A DNA stretch of 64,000 bases, taken from contig JARDVH010000110.1 in NCBI GenBank assembly GCA_030324005.1, positions 40,563,308 to 40,627,307 on the forward strand. The letters run 5' to 3'. The stretch is from Negaprion brevirostris. Lineage: Eukaryota. Position 1 is the first letter of the stretch; each line of letters starts with the position of its first letter. The position numbers and the translations under genes are program-made. Below, one piece after another: positions 3,705 through 64,000 of this stretch. The notes under the pieces are model-generated. The model saw nothing but the letters and a program-made list of their open reading frames with translations, was not told the origin of the DNA and ran no database searches.

Positions 3705-4280
3705 ATGATTTAATTTGACTTATTATTGTCACATGTATTAACACAGTGAAAAGTATTGTTTGTTGTGTGCTACACAGACAAAACATACCTTTCATGGAGA
3801 AGGAAATGGAGTGCAGAAAGTAGTGTTACAGTCATAGCTAGGGTGTAGAGAAAGATCAACTTAATGCAAGGTAAGTCCATTCAAAAGTCTAACAGCAGCA
3901 GGGAAGAAGCTGNNNNNNNNNNNNNNNNNNNNNNNNNNNNNNNNNNNNNNNNNNNNNNNNNNNNNNNNNNNNNNNNNNNNNNNNNNNNNNNNNNNNNNNN
4001 NNNNNNNNNNNNAGAGAAAGATCAACTTAATGCAAGGTAAGTCCATTCAAAAGTCTAACAGCAGCAGGGAAGAAGCTGTTCTTGAGTCGATGGGTACATG
4101 ATCTCATACTTTTGTATCTTTTTCCCAACGGAAGAAGGTGGGAGAATGATTGGGGTCCTTAATTATGCTGGCTGCTTTGCTGAAGCAGTGGGAAGTGTAT
4201 GAGAGTCAATGGATGGGAGGCTGGTTTGCATGATGGATTGGGCTACCTTTACAATCTTTTGTAGTTCCTTGCAGACCACA
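3705..4280 (-). mobile_element. Rex1/Babar-type LINE, 5'-truncated 3' fragment, interrupted by a gap
   Basis: The minus strand encodes SFFPAAVRLLN, a C-terminal motif of Rex/Babar-type ORFs. It shares its 3' UTR with the copy at 11147-12535. Boundaries are approximate. Confidence 0.7.
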
Positions 4281-6459: not shown

Positions 6460-7270
6460 GCGATTGTGGTCATTTATGGCACTGAAGAAGGCTGTTCAGT
6501 CCATCAAGTTTTCAGCCATTTCTTCGTGAAGCAGTCCAGCCAGTTCCATTTTCTAGCTGTATCCCCTTGGCCTACAAGTTTATTTCCTTCAAGCAACCAC
6601 CCAATTTAGTTTCGAAATCATTGATCATTTATGTTCCCATTACCTTGTAAGCATTGAATTCCAAGGCATATTTCCATTTTCATTAAAAGAAAGCTCTTCC
6701 TTGCATTTCCTCTACCTTACTTGCCCAAAACCTTAAATCTGTCTCTCCTAGCCCTTGTCATCGAACAGGAACAACTTTGCGTTGTCCACCATAATCNNNN
6801 NNNNNNNNNNNNNNNNNNNNNNNNNNNNNNNNNNNNNNNNNNNNNNNNNNNNNNNNNNNNNNNNNNNNNNNNNNNNNNNNNNNNNNNNNNNNNNNNTCGC
6901 GTTGTCCACCATAATCAAGCACCTCTATTAAATATCCCCCAATCTCCCGCCCCTAAGCAAATAATCCTAGCTTCCCCAGCTTACCCTTGTGCTTATTCCC
7001 TGTCCCTGGAACCATTCTGGTAAATCTCTGCTCTCTTCCAAGAATTCTCCTATCCTTTCTAAAATGTGTTGACCAGCACTGGATGTTGCACTGTAGTTGT
7101 TGCTTAACTAGAGCTTTATAAAGGTTTGACACAAACCCCTGCTTTTGTACTCTGACGCCCACAATCCCATGTGCTTTACTAACCACTTTCTCAATATGTC
7201 CTGCTGCCTTCAAAGGTCTATGTATGTACATTGAGGTTCCTCTATACCTGTGTACAGTCTTCAGAACAGT
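6460..7270 (-). mobile_element. Degraded CR1 LINE fragment
   Basis: ORF 6953..7339 remnant LYKALVKQQLQCNIQCWS...QRFTRMVPG. Confidence 0.75.
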
Positions 7271-18890: not shown

Positions 18891-21331
18891 AATTAGTAGT
18901 CATTGGCCCAATAATTGCTGTCAGAATAATGAGATGAATAGTCTTTATTATTTAGGTGCAGGAACATAGCAACGTCCAGCAAGGACAGGTGTGAGAACAA
19001 ACACAAAAACATGATGCTCTGACATTGGCTTGATGAAAATTGGCTTTTGCTGTCTGGCTCCCTATAAAATTGCATAGTGGCATGCATTTCCTGTACTTAA
19101 CAGTACATGTGAAGTAAATGCACCACAGAATTTTAAATCTGAGTATTCTTATAACCCTTTGCAGTATCATTACTGGCACTCAACACATTTTTAGTGCCAG
19201 AGAAGTTAATAAAAGTCTCAATCCTTCAGTTTTTGACTGTTGAAAACAAGAATTAAAACTTGTTATTTCTTTCTCTTTGCCTCCAACTTTTAACAAACTG
19301 ATTTAATGTTAAATTCACCATTCTAACTTCTTCCTAGTTCAGACCTTGCATAGTTCATTTCACAATCTTTCAACCCCCTTAGTTAAGATGCACTTGCCTG
19401 CACTGTTTAGTCAAGATATGAGATAAATTTGAGAGTGCCACGTCATTTCCACCTTGGACTTCCAGCAATGGGGAAGGCCAAGTTGGTAACTAATGGCAAG
19501 TGCTGTTGAGTGACTTACAGGAATTTTGGGCTTGTTTTTATTTTGACAACTATAGTGATACTGCTTTACAAAAATTATCATTGACAACTTTGATATTACA
19601 TCAGCATTGTAGCAAAATTGTCGATTTCTGATCCCAGCCAACTTCAAAAGGGTATTTTTGTGGTAACTTCATATTATATGTATCTTGTATGTATAAATAT
19701 GTTTACTAACTTTCAAAAGGAAAAATATTCAAAGTAATTTCACCCAGTTTCCTTGTTACCAACTCTCCTGCTGCAAAGTTTCTCTCCATTAGCTCTATTA
19801 ACATTTTTCATAATTTTAAAATCTTTAAATCTCTTCTTGCCTTATCCTGACTTGGCTAATCGTTAACTAATGGAAAAGCGTGGTTAATTCACATCCTTTA
19901 TGTTTGAATGATGGGTCTCTCACCCAAGTAACAGTATAATGCAAATGATGAAGAAACAGGATAAATTGTGCACCAACCTTCGAATTTCTTCATTTAACTA
20001 CATGTGGATGCTGACTGTTGCTGTCCGATTTTGCTCTGTAATGAAAGTGAATGTTTTGTTCCTATTGCATAATCCAGTCCCATACATTTATGTTGAAGTT
20101 AAACAACCTCTGCTGAGTAACTGCATTATCTGTTTCAGCCAGTGTTCTATTTATAATCCTGGCCGACAGGCAGGTGGGTTTAAAAAATACACTGGAGGTT
20201 GCTGGGACTTAGCACCACCATTTGACAACCATGGTTTAATGCCTCTCAGGAGCAATATTTTGTGGTATCTTAGTAATATCTCTTCCATGCATCCTCACAT
20301 TTTCTTTCTGGATACAAGTCAAAAACTCACTCCAGGTTTCCAGTGCAGTTTAATGTTGCTGTGAAGTGAAAATCACTTTGCAACAATGTAAATGTTAAAG
20401 TAATGAAGCATCTTACTATTACGCTATACTATTTCAAACCTGAAAGTGCTTTTNNNNNNNCACAAGTGAATGCTTAAAGGGTGATCTTTAACATCCTTTG
20501 CAAAGGATGCAAGAATGCAAAGTTAACGGTTGCCTACCATCAAATCAATGGGCTGTATTAGATGCAAAGCTGGAAATAACTTGAGGAAAAACAAGGATCT
20601 GCACAGGTGTAGCAGTTGGTAAAGTTTCTCGAGTGAAACTAACTTTTTTATAGTTTGCTAAAAATATATTTTTAAACACTTAACAGAGCTAGCCACTATG
20701 ATCATTTACCTTAGACTTGCTTTGTAGTATGGAAGAAAGCACGTTAGTTCATCAGGTGTCCAAACATTTTCAGAGGCTTGTTTGAAACTGCTGAAGGTTA
20801 ATTCAAATTTAGTCCCAGGGCTGCTTTTGAATAAATGATCTGTGATTTGCATGCCTTGAAATTTTAATTTCAAGTTGCATAATTCATGATCCAGCACCAA
20901 AGGAAACCTTTTTTAGTTGGCTATATTTCTGACAAATTTAAACAGTGTACTTTTCATATTGGTTCAAAAAGAACAGGAAGGAGTACAAAAATATGTTCAG
21001 AATTCAGATCTAATTTTTGCTTTTTAATAATTGTATCAACCTGTGATGTACATTTGTATTGGGCAGGGTAGAAATTGAAAACTTGACAATTTTTAAAAAA
21101 GCTTGTAATAGTAATGAGACAAGGCAGGAAAGGAAGCTGCTGTCTTCAGAAGCATCTGGCTTAATATATATTCCAATCCCTTAATCAGAAATGTCAAGTT
21201 ACTTTAGTTGTATCTTATTTTAAATTGCATGTTTAGTATGAAATGAAGCTCACTAACCTTATTTGTGCATGAACTGCATTTAATGTATGGCTGTTATGTT
21301 TGTGTCTTTGCATTTTCGCCTGCAACACTCC

Positions 21332-21338
21332 TACTAAC
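21332..21338 (+). promoter_or_regulatory. Perfect-consensus U2 branch point (TACTAAC) for the exon starting at 21360
   Basis: TACTAAC with the branch A at -23 from the acceptor; no AG between it and the acceptor. Confidence 0.75.
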
Positions 21339-21359
21339 TGTGATGAATCAAAACAAAAG

Positions 21360-21516
21360 GAATTGGTAAATTATCCACTGCTGATGGTAAAGCCTTCGCA
21401 GATCCTGAGGTACTCCGAAGACTGACTTCTTCTGTTAGCTGTGCGTTGGATGAAGCTGCTGCTGCCTTGACCCGAATGAGAGCAGAGAATACTTTAAATG
21501 CAGGACAAGCAGACAA
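21360..21516 (+). CDS. ANKHD1: ANKHD1 coding exon (~exon 3), 157 nt: (G)IGKLSTADGKAFADPEVLRRLTSSVSCALDEAAAALTRMRAENTLNAGQAD(N)
   Basis: AAAG|GAATT acceptor and AA|GTATGT donor. The translation matches the MASK-family N-terminal conserved segment. Confidence 0.93.
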
Positions 21517-22319
21517 GTATGTGTTTCTTTTTATTTATGCATTTGTGTGGGGGGTGCAGGGGGAGGTTGAAACTGGAAAGGATGATTTTTCAGCAAAACA
21601 TTAAGTAGTATACAATGCCTCAACTTTAAAACTTTATTCTGTGATTTTGGGATTTTCATTTCAAGTGATTGTATCCTCTGATTCTTTCCATGAATTTATG
21701 ATAACTGAATCAATTAAATTATGTTCACACTAGACAAGTTGCTTTGACACAATGATTTTACTCTTGTGTCCTTCAGTGAAAATCCCAATTAATGGTCTTC
21801 GTATCTAGTGTCCAATTATATTCTACTTTGTATAGTCATTGCATGGCTTCAAAGCACCAGAACAACTAATATGACAATGTTTGACTATTTTAAGTTTATG
21901 CATCTCAGCAGACGTACATAAAAAGTACTTATGTTTGTTCATATTAACCCTTAGACTGGTCACATTAAAAAAACATCTTAACTGGCTAAGGTTTTGTTAG
22001 GGCACAGTGGTTGCTAATTTTAGTCAGTTATAGTCAAAATACTAAACTGATTTCAAAACCAGGATTGTTTTGTCTTGGGTGTTTATGGTTGAATACACAG
22101 AACAAGTATAGAATACCAACAGTGTGAGCCCAGAGCATAGACAATATATTGAATAGATGTGATTTAGAAGGACTTGTAAAGTTAAAAATGTTGGGAAGGG
22201 ATGTTAGGGTGGAAGGTGAATCTAATCTTGTACCTGATTGTTGGAGAGAAAATGCTCATTTTATATTAAAAAACAGAAGTATAGGTGCTTGGGTATATCC
22301 TTTAATAGTGAAGGCACAG

Positions 22320-22625
22320 AAAATTAGATGTACGCCTTAGATTTTGTGGGTTGAGTCAGAAAGCCACCTAACCGATTTTCCTGTTTCTCAGAAACTGGAA
22401 AGGATGAGCTCAGAAAAATGAGAGGGATTTCATTGAAAAAGATAAAATTCTGACAGGGCTGAACAAATTGAATGCAGAGGTAATATTTCCTCTGGCTTGG
22501 GGTATCTGGAACAAAGGTTTGCCTACTCAGGATATGAAGGATGCCATTTAGGATTTCAGTGAGGAGAAATTTCTTCAAGGTGGTGAACCTGTAGAATTCG
22601 CTACAGCTTTCTAGACACTAATATT
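22320..22625 (+). mobile_element. CR1 LINE 3' fragment
   Basis: Typical CR1 ending GGATGCCATTTAGGATTTCAGTGAGGAGAAATTTCTTC...GTGGTGAACCTGTAGAATTC. Confidence 0.65.
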
Positions 22626-23066
22626 TGAGATATAGAATCATAGAAGTGCAGAAGGCGACTGTTTGGCCCATTGAATCTGCATTGACCCTGAATACCTTAA
22701 CCAGGTTTCTTCNNNNNNNNNNNNNNNNNNNNNNNNNNNNNNNNNNNNNNNNNNNNNNNNNNNNNNNNNNNNNNNNNNNNNNNNNNNNNNNNNNNNNNNN
22801 NNNNNNNNNNNNACATACCATCCCCCACGCGCGTACACATACCATCCCCCACGCGCGTACACATACCATCCCCCACGCGCGTACACATACATCTTTGGAT
22901 GCTAAGAAGCAATTTAGCAAGGCCACTTCACCTAACCTGCTCAATTTGGAGCTCCCAGGGTAAACCCACGCAGACACTAGGAGAATGTGCAAACTCCTCA
23001 ATCGCTCAAGACTACAATTGAGCCTGGCCTCCTGGTGCTTTGAGGCAGGTGTGCCAACCACTGTCC
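22626..23066 (-). mobile_element. HE1-like SINE containing an internal minisatellite and a gap
   Basis: Tail ATAGAATCATAGAAG; body CAATTTAGCAAGGCC...AAACCCACGCAGACAC...AATGTGCAAACTCC. Confidence 0.75.
22813..22890. repeat. 24-bp tandem repeat ACATACCATCCCCCACGCGCGTAC, at least 3.25 identical copies abutting a gap
   Basis: Units start at 22813, 22837 and 22861, with a partial unit at 22885. Confidence 0.95.
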
Positions 23067-24267
23067 GGGGGAGAGTGGGAATATGACATTGAGATAGAGG
23101 ATCTCAATGGACCTATACCTCCTATTTTTTATGTTTCTCTTCTGACGACACTAGGCAACGATTTATGATTTCAGTGGATAGTCACAGCATAAATTCTGCT
23201 CTATTATAGAATACTAAATTAATCACTAAACCAAAAGTTGTAATTTTAAACTGACAGAACTCAAGAATAGAGCTCCTACAACACAGGTGAATGCCACTTA
23301 ATAAAAATTTTATTTACTTGATCACTGCGTAACAATTGCCCTGGCAATAGCCTTGATGAATTTCTGCACTTGTATATGCACTGCATACTCTCTTATGCCA
23401 GGCAATGTTGCTTAGATCCTGATAGTGAAATTCTGTGACTGCACTATTTTTATATTCCAGTGAATCTAATTAATGTTTCATTGTTTTATTTGTGGGATAT
23501 TGTGCATAAAGAGATTGTCAAGCTAAACTGTCATGATGAATTAACCCAGGAATCCACAAACGAGGAAAGCTGAGACATTTGGAATCTAGGAAGTGTTTTT
23601 TTCACCTTCCACTGCCAGAGAAAATGAACTTCAATTTATGGCAATCCATCCATCCATTCTCTTGTAAATTACTACCTGTTAATGCTCATTGAGAATTAGT
23701 GTGCCAGTTCCCTAATCCAGGATTGGGCCCAAGCAGCAGCTGGTCTTCATAGGATTCTTATTACTGTGCCATTTGTAGAATTTTTATTGTTGCACCATTG
23801 GCCTTTAAGATGTGGTGGTTTTAATATAGTTGAGACTGTAACATATTGTGGTTGACAGATCACTATCATGACTAATTTTAATGTTGCAATTTTCTTTTAT
23901 TTACTCCTTGTACATGTGCCATCCTCCGCCTGATTTTAATGTTTTCCTTTTTTGGCAAATGTTTACATTCAATATAATTTAAAAAGCTGAGGTTTTAAAC
24001 TGGTAAATCATACTTTTTATTAACCAGTAGAATAATTAACTGCAAGAGCAATTTATGCAGAAAACCCATGGCATCAGTAGCTATGACTAGTAGTGAATAT
24101 TTTAAGATCAAATGTCTTGTTTCAGGTTTTTGAGCCACACTTGCCAGATACAGATGTGTTTTTTTACACTTCAGCTAGAGTTCAAAAATGAAACCTATGG
24201 AGTATGTATTTCTATAAAATTTGATGACCTGTAAGAATAAGTTATTTAAATTTGTTTCCTGATTTAG

Positions 24268-26566: not shown

Positions 26567-26660
26567 GTAAGTTGTTTTCAACTGGTATGGTATTTAGTTA
26601 TCTAATCTTAGTTTCTGTGTGAAGTGAGATGACACTTTATACTTTTTAATTTCTTTTTAG

Positions 26661-49620: not shown

Positions 49621-50755
49621 ATGTCAATACACTTTTAATTTGAGAGCTATTAAAGATGAGTTTAATCTGCCTATACCCAGTGACCCTTGTTGGGAAATAA
49701 TAATCAGNNNNNNNNNNCTTCCTGCTGTTCCAGCTGAGATCAACTAAAAGACTATAAATTAAGCTTTTTGTTCAGTATCACCAGGAGTTTTATTGGATGA
49801 AACTGTGGAATCAAGGGAAATTTACCTGTCAACTTGAAATAGCTTTTTGTGAAAAATTAATTTGGAAACCTTAAATATTTGTGTATTCAAAGTTCGTTAG
49901 CATCTTGTTCTTTGTGGTGTCAGCATATGGAGAATGCTGGGAGGTTATAGTATTCAAAGTACATGCATGATTTCTGTTGTACAATTCTTTAAAAAGAGAT
50001 CTGGAGAAACATGGAACAGTTTTTTGAAATGTTACAAACATGAATCAATTATTGTAATTATACAATTGTTAATGTGATTTACCAAGTATCATTCAAAATG
50101 AAAAATAGATTGGGGAATTTTAAGTATTACCATTGGAAAATTTTGGCCAAAGTTCCTTCAGATAGCCATTTTCAGTTGTATCCTGTAACATTTAATCTAG
50201 GTCTTTAACAGAAGTGGTCCAAGTGTAAATGATCTAAATATGATTCGGAAAATTTGAATTTTTACAGTTGAATTATTTGGCAACCTCTTCAGTTGTCCTG
50301 AGCCACTTAAGTTTGATTCAGATATTTCTTGCTCCCAAATATTATAAACTTCAATAGATGTAGCATTCGAACATGGGAATGCACAATTGCTTAGATTAGA
50401 ATATTATAATACTTATTTTTAAAGATGTCTTAATGTTGGTTAGCCATCATGCTATTTTTGTATCTCTGCCCTATATCCAAGTTTAACATTTTCTAGAAAT
50501 ACCATGAAGGAGATACTATTTAATGTAATTTTTTTCCTTTCCCTCTTCCTCTCTGACAAAAAAACATGACATAATTTCAGATAACCCTACAAAAGTGATA
50601 TCTGGAATACAAATACTTCATTAGATTAAACAAAGCAAATGTAGAATAGTTTGTGTTCAGTGCTAGACTGAATAAAAGCCACAAAGTTTACACTGGTTTC
50701 ACATGGGTAAGTAATTTTTGCATGGCATTTTTTCAAACATTTTTCGTGTGCTTAG

Positions 50756-51499
50756 GTACATCCAAGCAGAAGTCCAGTCCCCTGCAGGTAGCGGAACAGG
50801 ATGTCCAGCCCTTCCACGAGTACCAGCCTTTAGAATGCATTGTGGAAGAGACGGAAGGCAAGCTGACAGAGCTGGGACAAAGAATTAACGCAATTGAGAA
50901 GGCACAATTGAAGTCACTAGAGTTGATTCAGGGAGACACTTTAACCAAAGACAAGATAGAAGAACTAAAAAAGAGCAGAGAAGAGCAAGTCCAGAAGAAG
51001 AAAAAGATTTTGAAAGAGCTGCAAAAAGTTGAAAGGGAATTGCAGCTGAAAACTCAGCAGCAGTTTACCAAAGAGTACTTGGAAGCCAAGGGTCAACAGC
51101 AGACACTTCAGCTCCAGCAACAACAGCAGCAGCAATGCCCACAAGGAGGACTGTTCCCCCAGGTGGGGACTGGTGACTGTCTGCCAGAGGAAGACTTTTC
51201 AAAGTTGCCTCAGGTGGACACCATCTTGCACAGAGATGGCCAGCAGCAGCCACCTGCAACCCAAATGGGGTTTGTTCCTATCCAACCTTTAGCAACACAA
51301 GTGTCTCCAAACTTTACTAGTTCTGTTTATCCTATCACTAACGTACCTGATCTACAGAGAGTAATTGTGAACCAGCCTTTGTTAGGACAGGCACAACTTG
51401 CTGGACTTGGACAGGGACTCTTAGCTCAAGCACCTGATGGATTAATGGTTGCAACTCCAGCACAGACGCTAACTGACACTCTTGATGACATCATGGCAG
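50756..51499 (+). CDS. ANKHD1: ANKHD1 large linker exon (~exon 15), 744 nt, phase 1-1 symmetric: GTSKQKSS...coiled coil/Q-rich...TLTDTLDDIMA
   Basis: CTTAG|G acceptor, CAG|GTGGGT donor; ORF 50653..51558; conserved KDKIEELKK.REEQVQKKKKILKELQKVE segment. Confidence 0.95.
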
Positions 51500-57735: not shown

Positions 57736-59529
57736 TACTATCATGTGGAAAATGACAAGCTGAGTCGCACTTATTTTGCATTTAATTCTTGTGTAGTTGT
57801 CAGTTTTGGATTGGGCCGCCAGACCACCTTCAGGAATAATATCTGGCATTGGGACAGCAACTTGAAATTTCAACAATTGCATATTGTGCCTAAGAATTAT
57901 ATAAATCAGTCTGCTTTAGTTGGACTTCTATTTTCAGGTGATTTGGAGGAAATGAGAGAATTTTCCCATCCAAACAATATTTCCATCTGAGAAAAACTGC
58001 ATCAAAGAATTCTTGTAGTTTTGTCATCCCACAAAAGTAACTGAAAAGTAACTGCATTTTTTTGTTCCTAAACGATATGAATTCAGCAACAGAAGAAATC
58101 TGCAACATCTGAACTTTGGCATTCCTAATGTACCACCTTTTTAATATAAGATTGTAAATGGATACATTTGATCTCGTGGCAACTAAGTCATCAAAATGAG
58201 CTGGAGATTGTGGTTTATGAACAAAATTTGATGAACAGGCCTAATCGACAAAAAAAGACACACCTTTTCATCGTTCTACCCATTCTAATGTCAAACTTTT
58301 TTTCCTAAGATTAGTTATAAAACAGTTGGTGAGAAGTTGGGGTAAAGTGGAGGAGCCCCTCACTGACTCGTGTCATCCTTGTGATGGTGCAGTGGAAAAG
58401 ATCTGGCATCCCTAAAATGTCACAACTGTAAAAATTCAACCCCATGCCTGTATTCCTATGGAGCAAAGAGACAATTTCTAGCAGATTTTACCTAGTTCCC
58501 ACTGTATACCTCTCAAACCCTTGGGAATCCAGCATTGTGATCTAACTCAGTCGTCAAGAAGGGATGAAGTCAACTTGAAGTAGTCAGGCCACCATCTTGT
58601 ACATCCAGTTTCCAAATGAAAGGGATCAGTTCACTAAAAATTTTCAGTGCGAGCTTTTTGTGTTAACAATTTTCAACAAAACAAAAGGTATAAAGTGAAT
58701 TTTGGCATTTGAATGGAGTCCAGGATAATTGGATGGTTGCACAAAATGAACTAATTTGGGTTTCCTTACATGAAACCACGTAGATCCTCTAAATTATTTT
58801 GCTTCCAGATTAGAGCACTTGTTTACAGGGCAGTGAATACCGTAATTGTTTCAATTGCAGCAACTGTAAAGACCATTTGACTGACACTTTCCTTTGTAAT
58901 TGTGATTTTAAAAAAGTGTTTGACTTTTCAGCTTAACCAAAGAGACCTAGAGCTGAACAATTATTGTAGAACTTGTGGAAGTTTTTATTAGAATATTAAT
59001 ATTCTTTATTTCCACCGTGCAAATTCTGTTGCTATGCATTCAACTTTTTTGTTTCATAATTTGAAAGTCCTCAGATTTTCATGTTAGAAACTTGCTGGTT
59101 ATTTCAGGAGCAAGGTTAAAAAAGTGCCATCCCTGACAGAATTTGGGTTGTAGTTTGAAGCCATTAAACATCTTGAATGGAAATTCTTCAATTTTCTGTA
59201 GTTTCTAAATATGTTGCCTCTTCATTTCAGTATGTTATGTGATACTGTTTTGTAAAATTACTGGCACAATAATGGAATAACCTTCTGAGGCACTGTTGGC
59301 CTATGTTCAATTTTTATTGAACACTTTCAATATTACATTTTAAACAATGATAGAGTCTTATTTCTTAATTATTCAATTCTGGTTTATATTTGTAAAATGC
59401 TGAAAGTGGCACTATTATAAATTATGTTCTCACTTTCCAGAATGTGCTCAGTCTTTGGTTGCATGCATCTAGCAAAATTCTATAGCTCTTTCTCATTTTG
59501 AGGAAATGACAACTGATTTTGTTTTGCAG

Positions 59530-59678
59530 CAGTGAGTAGTAGAATGCCTTCTGGACCGAATCCTCCTTCCCACACTACAACACCCCCTACTCCTCAGCCT
59601 CGCACTCAAACTCCCAGTCCAGTTGTTTCTCCTTCATCAATGCTGCCTCTCTATCCTTCAGTTGAAATTGACGCACAG
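59530..59678 (+). CDS. ANKHD1: ANKHD1 coding exon (~exon 16), 149 nt: AVSSRMPSGPNPPSHTTTPPTPQPRTQTPSPVVSPSSMLPLYPSVEIDAQ
   Basis: TTTTGCAG|CAG acceptor (NAGNAG), CAG|GTAAAC donor. Confidence 0.92.
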
Positions 59679-63731: not shown

Positions 63732-64000
63732 GTGAAAGACCTTTCCGTTAACTGTTCTGTTAACTGTCCATACCCAGTTTACTTGAATGAGCATGCACTG
63801 TGCGGTTTCAGAACAAACACTAGCCTAAATTGCTCAGTAGAAGCTCGTAATCTGGGCACAGACATAACTGGGGTAGTTTACAAGGGAGCAGGGAGATACT
63901 GTCTCACCACCCCCCTGAAACAATATCAGTATGGCGCGACACATTGTAACATTACTAACACTACATTCTGTATCAAACCAGGGTGGGCCTCATTCACGTA

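Follow-up and report, generated by a model that had tools for sequence, protein, structure and literature searches.

A tract-less exon-3 acceptor with a perfect TACTAAC in ANKHD1 of Negaprion brevirostris

The exon-3 acceptor and its layout

The 64,000-nucleotide (nt) window analysed here, from Negaprion brevirostris contig JARDVH010000110.1, carries on its + strand 16 consecutive coding exons of one Mask-family gene; our subject is the acceptor of the exon at 21360-21516, which is exon 3 in human numbering (exons 1 and 2 lie outside the window). Translated, this exon matches named fish ANKHD1 at 100% identity and ANKRD17 at 94%, and the adjacent exons match the two at 98-99% and 92-94%, respectively. 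Because of these identities, and because the end of the preceding intron resembles that of an ANKHD1-type and not an ANKRD17-type locus, we assign the gene to ANKHD1, as the initial annotation of this DNA had done; the exon protein identities bear that call out. Donors in the window are of the GT type in 16 of 16 cases. The features of the acceptor region are listed below, with distances counted from the exon; L006 is a bird/reptile-type ANKHD1 locus described in the next section.

21226-21231, + strand: TGCATG, an RBFOX-type motif, upstream copy; only the GCATG core is matched in L006
21249-21357, + strand: 109-nt AG-free zone; the previous AG is at 21247-21248
21251-21257, + strand: distal CACTAAC, A at -104; L006 has an ACTAAY at -94
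21265-21271, + strand: GTGCATG, identical in L006 and encodable in 8 of 13 fish-type read-throughs
21288-21293, + strand: TGGCTG block, identical in L006
21296-21331, + strand: interrupted U-rich tract 5' of the predicted branch site, 69% pyrimidine
21302-21315, + strand: 14-nt block, identical in L006
21332-21338, + strand: TACTAAC, predicted branch site, A21337 at -23 (-26 in L006)
21339-21357, + strand: spacer, purine rich by composition, in the usual place of a polypyrimidine tract
21341-21347, + strand: TGATGAA, at exactly -19 in both the window and L006, with a second branch-like adenosine, A21343, at -17
21358-21359, + strand: AG1, main acceptor (AAG/G), judged from the layout and orthologous proteins
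21360-21392, + strand: AG-free exon segment of 33 nt coding for GIGKLSTADGK, with a candidate exonic branch-like A at 21369
21360-21516, + strand: ANKHD1 exon 3; its 157 nt equal the human length, and its GT donor is at 21517
21391-21392, + strand: AG2, putative in-frame alternative acceptor, whose human counterpart is the SF3B1-mutant junction

The motifs stand where the initial annotation had placed them, with TGCATG at 21226 and 21266, CACTAAC at 21251, TACTAAC at 21332 and AGs at 21358-21359 and 21391-21392. Its description of the intervening sequence also agrees with ours: the 19 nt between TACTAAC and AG1 are purine rich (32% pyrimidine, 53% A), and the pyrimidine-rich run lies 5' of TACTAAC (36 nt, 69% pyrimidine), although it is interrupted and its longest pure run is 5. 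The polypyrimidine tract that a canonical metazoan U2 acceptor would have between TACTAAC and AG1 is thus absent. AG2 lies 33 nt farther on and in frame; provided that exon 2 has a phase-1 end, as orthologues indicate, use of AG2 would remove GIGKLSTADGK. To this description our analysis adds an AG-free zone of 109 nt, the AAG, and three conserved blocks, at 21288, 21302-21315 and 21341-21347.

This acceptor stands apart from the 15 others in the window. The pyrimidine share at positions -20 to -4 is 0.29, the lowest of the 16 (the others range from 0.53 to 0.88), with a longest pyrimidine run of 2, and AAG is found here only, against YAG at all 15 others. The AG-free zone upstream of AG1 is likewise the longest (109 nt versus 16-50), and AG-to-AG gaps of at least 109 nt number 4 of 3931 across the window. 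No other window acceptor has a full seven-letter TACTAAC match, and none of the 15 has an ACTAAY within 140 nt. Among 5000 dinucleotide shuffles of the 140 nt upstream, a proximal TACTAAC arose 8 times, two ACTAAY motifs 47 times and two TGCATG motifs 131 times; the full set never arose together. Judged by its letters, TACTAAC, with its A at -23, falls within the 18-40 nt expected of a branch consensus.

Two other acceptor classes were considered and rejected: a U12-type intron, since no TCCTTRAC branch site lies near 21359, and a NAGNAG tandem acceptor, since AG1 and AG2 are 33 nt and not 3 nt apart. A tandem CAGCAG (NAGNAG) acceptor does occur at a later exon (59527-59532). Across the window, all 7 TACTAAC motifs lie on the sense strand and none on the antisense (for example, 63953-63959 and 56352).

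Conservation of the intron end

A motif scan of metagenome contigs returned 12 loci, of which 9 are distinct and usable; L003, L007 (upstream sequence that of L002) and L012 (30 nt, that of L009) were dropped before counting. L006 is of bird/reptile ANKHD1 type, L008 of ANKRD17 type, and the other seven of invertebrate type. The intron ends of the window and L006 share six collinear blocks (ACTAAY, GTGCATG, TGGCTG, the exact 14-mer, TACTAAC and TGATGAA) and align with a score of 60; of 3000 random window stretches (mean 26.9, standard deviation 6.5), 1 scored as high, and none of the 15 other window acceptors did. Farther upstream in the intron, and at the start of the next intron, the two loci score at background. 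The longest exact match in 500 random controls was 11 nt, compared with 14 here. L006 lacks a tract (0.47 pyrimidine) and also ends in AAG. The AG-free zone, 109 nt in the window and so above a 100-nt threshold, spans 59 nt in L006 and is unconserved there: ACTAAY motifs stand at -108 and -27 in the window and at -94 and -30 in L006, and L006 has AGs at -87 and -62, between its upstream ACTAAT and the acceptor.

L008 has the same layout, with a tract, then TACCAAT at -24, a 40%-pyrimidine spacer and AAG. By contrast, the seven invertebrate-type loci all have ordinary YAG acceptors with pyrimidine shares of 0.59-0.76. Because these seven are ordinary and both vertebrate paralogue types are odd, comparison of the loci indicates that the intron position predates the odd acceptor, whose origin likely lies before the ANKHD1/ANKRD17 split. 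The initial annotation's description of the acceptor as ancient is therefore apt for jawed vertebrates, but not beyond them. ANKRD17 seems to keep a block of its own, a tract followed by a TACCAAT-like site, in the bird-type L008 DNA and in the mammal-type read-throughs P0041 and P0284; in P0284, an ANKRD17-like intron end is joined to an ANKHD1-like exon end, and this sequence is probably a chimeric assembly.

Open frames that cross from the intron into exon 3 (read-throughs, counted if they had at least 25 upstream residues) extend the comparison to peptides. Taking T-N or [LVI]-L-T as two readings of CTAAY, we find one or the other in 24 of 31 ANKHD1-type and 2 of 14 invertebrate-type read-throughs, versus 5 of 35 and 3 of 37 downstream controls; four of the seven ANKHD1-type misses begin downstream of the position at which their relatives have the motif. 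In fish-type read-throughs, the CTAAY-compatible motif lies 52-147 nt from the AG, the residues upstream of it are rich in F, C and V (that is, U-rich), and a TGCATG-compatible triplet is present in 8 of 13 versus 4 of 37 controls. The spacer after the motif holds 3 K, E or Q in 750 residues compared with 159 in 1482, as expected if this zone is AG-free and A-poor. Fish-type orthologues thus appear, from these peptides, to keep TACTAAC.

Several named vertebrate gene models (P0012, P0046, P0050, P0054, P0063, P0077 and P0091) mis-join or extend the exon-3 acceptor, which is expected if predictors score this acceptor poorly across vertebrates. Some transcript-like frames keep one flanking intron, with the other side of exon 3 spliced: intron 2 in P0041, and intron 3 in P0271, P0273 and P0285. 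Splicing around exon 3 may be slow, or the intron may be retained.

The second AG and the definition of the acceptor

The human counterpart of AG2 is used. In SF3B1-mutant uveal melanoma, the junction chr5:139815842-139818045 has a log2 fold change of -1.26, and 139815842-139818078 one of +3.03 (PMC4743009). The two acceptors, 139818045 and 139818078, differ by 33 nt. Since the exon ends at 139818202 (PMC5029572), its long human form measures 157 nt, the length of the window exon. Inclusion of the long form is 0.95 in wild-type and 0.35 in SF3B1-mutant myelodysplastic syndrome (MDS) cells (PMC5029572), where the two groups were told apart by the title of the sheet and by the sign that known upstream events take in it; AG2 is accordingly minor in normal cells, at about 5% in human wild-type in that dataset. 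Of the human isoforms differing by 11 residues that the initial annotation mentioned, the 33-nt junction pair is verified, and no such protein was found. The known trigger of the shift to AG2 is SF3B1 hotspot mutation. ANKHD1 in SF3B1-mutant tumours is reportedly treated in work by Furney in 2013 and Darman in 2015. The gene is also listed as a known SF3B1 target (PMC9131920), and it is named as shifting to a cryptic acceptor, at an unspecified junction, upon PRP5 knockdown (10.1101/2022.11.07.515429); loss of PRP5/DDX46 is perhaps a further trigger. Most SF3B1 events are described as upstream shifts of about 15 nt from tract-bearing sites; ANKHD1 falls outside this majority class, for its induced AG lies 33 nt downstream. 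The PMC4358997 supplements searched held no ANKHD1 rows, and PMC6344872 did not mention the gene.

AG2 depends on an AAA lysine codon, which all three vertebrate loci and two of the seven invertebrate-type ones have. Counted from the start of the exon, AG2 comes first among the AGs in both ANKHD1 loci and fourth in L008. Synonymous conservation within the 33 nt (8 of 10 sites) is not raised relative to downstream segments (10 of 12 and 6 of 10). In a predicted structure of a bird orthologue (mean predicted local distance difference test score 69), the 11 residues form a putative, low-confidence loop that links helices 38-50 and 67-100 and precedes the first ankyrin repeat.

We consider it rather probable that the exon-3 acceptor is defined by its branch site, with the first AG downstream being taken and AG1 bypassed when branch choice slips. 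U2 pairing at the perfect TACTAAC, 23 nt before the AAG, would define the acceptor, and the first AG downstream would then be used. Proteins on the upstream blocks (the 14-mer, TGCATG and ACTAAY) would stand in for U2AF2 on a tract; such blocks likely bind helper factors, and AG1 may depend weakly on U2AF2. If recognition starts at the branch site and the first AG is then selected, one expects the branch motif to be perfect and fixed, the AG-free spacer to vary and the AG itself to be poor. Both first-AG selection and the bypass of AGs within 12-15 nt of the branch have been described (PMC1431707). With mutant SF3B1 or less PRP5, the branch would slip to a weaker adenosine near AG1 or in the exon. 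AG1 would then be skipped in favour of AG2, 33 nt farther downstream, at the cost of 11 residues. The best bypass candidate is the conserved TGAT adenosine A21343 at -17 (about -13, and CTRAY-compatible, in mammal-type read-throughs), which would sit at the edge of the 12-15 nt range for AG skipping; other candidates are the A-run before AG1 and the exonic A21369, which lies 24 nt before AG2 and is kept in L006.

A21337 is likely the branch point in preference to A21256, because the L006 AGs at -87 and -62 would block the distal path and because the fish-type motif aligns with the proximal site. Within L006, no perfect site other than the proximal TACTAAC can reach AG1 without meeting another AG first, in keeping with the initial annotation's choice of this motif as the branch site. 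The distal CACTAAC is likely a protein site or a decoy rather than a working branch site.

A number of observations weigh against branch-site definition. The orthologous vertebrate DNA compared amounts to one locus, L006, and the fish-type evidence is deduced backwards from peptides, whose source sequences are related and hence not independent. Sequence similarity between L008 and the window is not significant (661 of 3000 controls align as well), and T-N or [LVI]-L-T is found in none of three ANKRD17-type read-throughs. The camel gene model P0054 has a 166-residue read-through without T-N or L-T, and the mammal-type P0053 is compatible with CTGAC at about -21 rather than TACTAAC, so the perfect motif may be absent in mammals, the source of the SF3B1 data; what is known here of the mammalian intron end comes from read-through peptides. 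ANKHD1 was not found in the searched lariat-table supplements of PMC5959240, PMC4315302 and PMC5378181. Mutant SF3B1 reportedly prefers sites that pair more strongly with U2, so departure from a perfect TACTAAC would not be predicted if the human site is perfect. By quantitative PCR, cryptic forms mostly lie 10- to 1000-fold below the canonical ones in the data covered (PMC7880055). The 11-residue deletion appears in none of 191 spliced protein models, a sample ranked by the long form and thus biased, and a weak search with a deletion-bearing query returned no 11-residue-shorter protein among 47 clusters.

The initial annotation proposed that QKI and SF1 compete at the two ACUAAY motifs, with RBFOX at UGCAUG, to set the choice between AG1 and AG2. 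In a variant of this idea that we add, closer to the published model, the 157-nt exon would be skipped or the intron retained, shifting the frame and lowering expression. L006 keeps both ACTAAY motifs and GTGCATG, fish-type read-throughs can encode TGCATG (8 of 13 versus 4 of 37 controls), ACTAAY is near none of the 15 other window acceptors, and QKI/SF1 competition at ACUAA is published (PMC13004596); such regulation could operate alongside definition by the branch site. However, the ACTAAY pair is 81 nt apart in the window and 64 nt in L006 versus 9 nt in RAI14 (PMC13004596), no TAAY half-site lies within 20 nt, L008 has no ACTAAY at all, and the RAI14 outcome is skipping and not an acceptor shift. 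The titles and abstract openings searched link QKI to exon 3 in no case, and ANKHD1 is absent from the portion of the PMC13004596 main text covered. We regard such a switch as unlikely; if QKI and SF1 do have a role at this exon, frameshifting loss of its 157 nt from the transcript is no less likely a result than a shift of acceptor. That the working branch point is instead A21256 of the distal CACTAAC, with the downstream U-rich stretch as its tract, a scan to the first AG and TACTAAC as a regulatory or backup site, so that no tract would be lacking, seems to us quite unlikely. The 109-nt AG-free zone begins 8 nt before A21256 and a U-rich tract follows, as in described distant-branch introns (PMC1431707), which fish-type orthologues also resemble, but in L006 the AGs at -87 and -62 follow the upstream ACTAAT and would capture the scan, and the far motif of fish-type read-throughs is preceded by U-rich, TGCATG-compatible sequence and so corresponds to the proximal TACTAAC.

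PUF60 and RBM39 are factors related to U2AF2. If U2AF2 or such a relative still bound the exon, or the U-rich stretch lying 5' of TACTAAC, the acceptor would be driven by that factor and not by its branch site, and AG2 would be no more than a leak from Lys-Ala codons. The best-conserved element is indeed a U-rich 14-mer, AG2 arises from AAA-GCN, which 2 of 7 invertebrate-type loci also have, synonymous conservation in the 33 nt (8 of 10) does not exceed that downstream (10 of 12), and wild-type use of AG2 in the data covered is about 5%. This explanation alone would leave unaccounted for a perfect TACTAAC that is kept while its distance to the AG ranges from 23 to about 147 nt; moreover, all three vertebrate loci use AAA, and in neither ANKHD1 locus does another AG interrupt the 33 nt. 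We judge it improbable. Far less credible is the idea that the conserved blocks are an RNA structure or a small RNA of C/D-box-like type, as GTGATGA might suggest: a sub-threshold SNORD65 match covers 21338-21420 with 16.3 bits, compared with a gathering score of 41 (E 0.71), the downstream CTGA is not kept in L006, folding z-scores are +1.89, +0.37 and +0.79, and no helix is common to the window and L006. A C/D-box small nucleolar RNA was rejected on that Rfam threshold, and a duplex between the 14-mer and the exon end was rejected because it is not shared with L006.

For the human orthologue, the splicing event has been described before; the inverted, tract-less and conserved architecture of the ANKHD1 exon-3 acceptor, and its cis layout generally, were not found in the literature searched, whose scope excluded subscription papers. 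ANKHD1 is a recurrent marker of mis-splicing in SF3B1-mutant cancers and belongs to the downstream-moving minority that falls outside the upstream-cryptic-AG model. A conserved acceptor without a tract would offer a cis explanation for this downstream shift, together with a short natural minigene, and bears on how vertebrate spliceosomes recognise an acceptor with next to nothing for U2AF2 to bind and on how mutant SF3B1 or PRP5 loss affects branch choice. Natural variants are at hand, with spacers from 19 to more than 100 nt, a degenerate paralogue and ordinary invertebrate versions. One prediction is that ANKHD1 expression could be upset by sequence changes within an intron stretch of about 110 nt, well away from the AG. 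A bolder proposal, which we hold to be doubtful, is that jawed vertebrates keep this inverted acceptor, in the order U-rich block, branch site, purines and AAG, with two stacked branch sites, the perfect TACTAAC and a weaker TGAT at the limit of AG bypass, as a read-out of branch-site proofreading by U2, SF3B1 and PRP5. If so, the SF3B1 cancer marker would be a switch being thrown and not a cryptic error, and it would put in or leave out an 11-residue linker that sits between the two conserved helices preceding the ankyrin repeats.

Elsewhere in the window, a 94-nt intron (26567-26660) lies among kilobase introns, and its donor has a near-repeat with a GT 19 nt downstream (TCAACTGGTA occurs twice). 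The long exon at 50755-51499 encodes a glutamine run (QQQTLQLQQQQQQQ) between two ankyrin blocks, and a short tandem repeat occupies 22618-23100. Runs of N, which are gaps or masked sequence, occur at 3913, 6797, 14304, 18131, 22713, 32100, 37301 and 57185; some are flanked by duplicated sequence (3830-4080 and 6780-6915), which suggests a draft assembly. A run of 7 N at 20454 lies 900 nt upstream of the exon-3 acceptor features and does not touch them.

Relation to known acceptors

The nearest known system is the human ANKHD1 exon-3 acceptor itself, which shares the gene, the 157-nt exon and the 33-nt offset and is the orthologous site (PMC4743009, PMC5029572). In the portions of those papers covered, the event figures as a mis-splicing marker only, and its cis layout and conservation are not described. 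Its shift is downstream, whereas the usual SF3B1 cryptic AG lies about 15 nt upstream. RAI14 exon 11 resembles ANKHD1 in having two ACUAAY motifs upstream of the exon (PMC13004596), but there they are 9 nt apart compared with 64-81 nt, and the outcome is skipping of a cassette exon. Introns with weak tracts and upstream enhancers (PMC2481429) offer another likeness, since ANKHD1 also combines a weak tract with candidate compensating motifs upstream; ANKHD1 differs in its perfect branch site and U-rich sequence, and the likeness is to the general description of those introns.

Exons with a distant branch point and an AG-exclusion zone (AGEZ), such as those of alpha-tropomyosin and PTB exon 11 (PMC1431707), share with ANKHD1 a long AG-free zone and a consensus branch site; first-AG selection operates there and would be expected here, and fish-type orthologues fit well. 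In AGEZ exons, however, the tract follows the branch site, whereas in ANKHD1 the U-rich block precedes TACTAAC, and their branch sites are distant, whereas in both the window and L006 TACTAAC keeps the usual distance from the AG. At the 5' end of the AG-free zone, the window has a branch site and a tract; AGs break up this arrangement in L006, and for fish-type orthologues its presence is deduced. By analogy, the ANKHD1 acceptor would seem to work like a branch-driven AG-exclusion acceptor without fitting the full definition of the distant-branch class. The 3' ends of budding-yeast introns also combine an invariant UACUAAC with little tract. Their likeness to ANKHD1 is one of layout. The ANKHD1 state is vertebrate-derived, and the invertebrate-type orthologues are ordinary.

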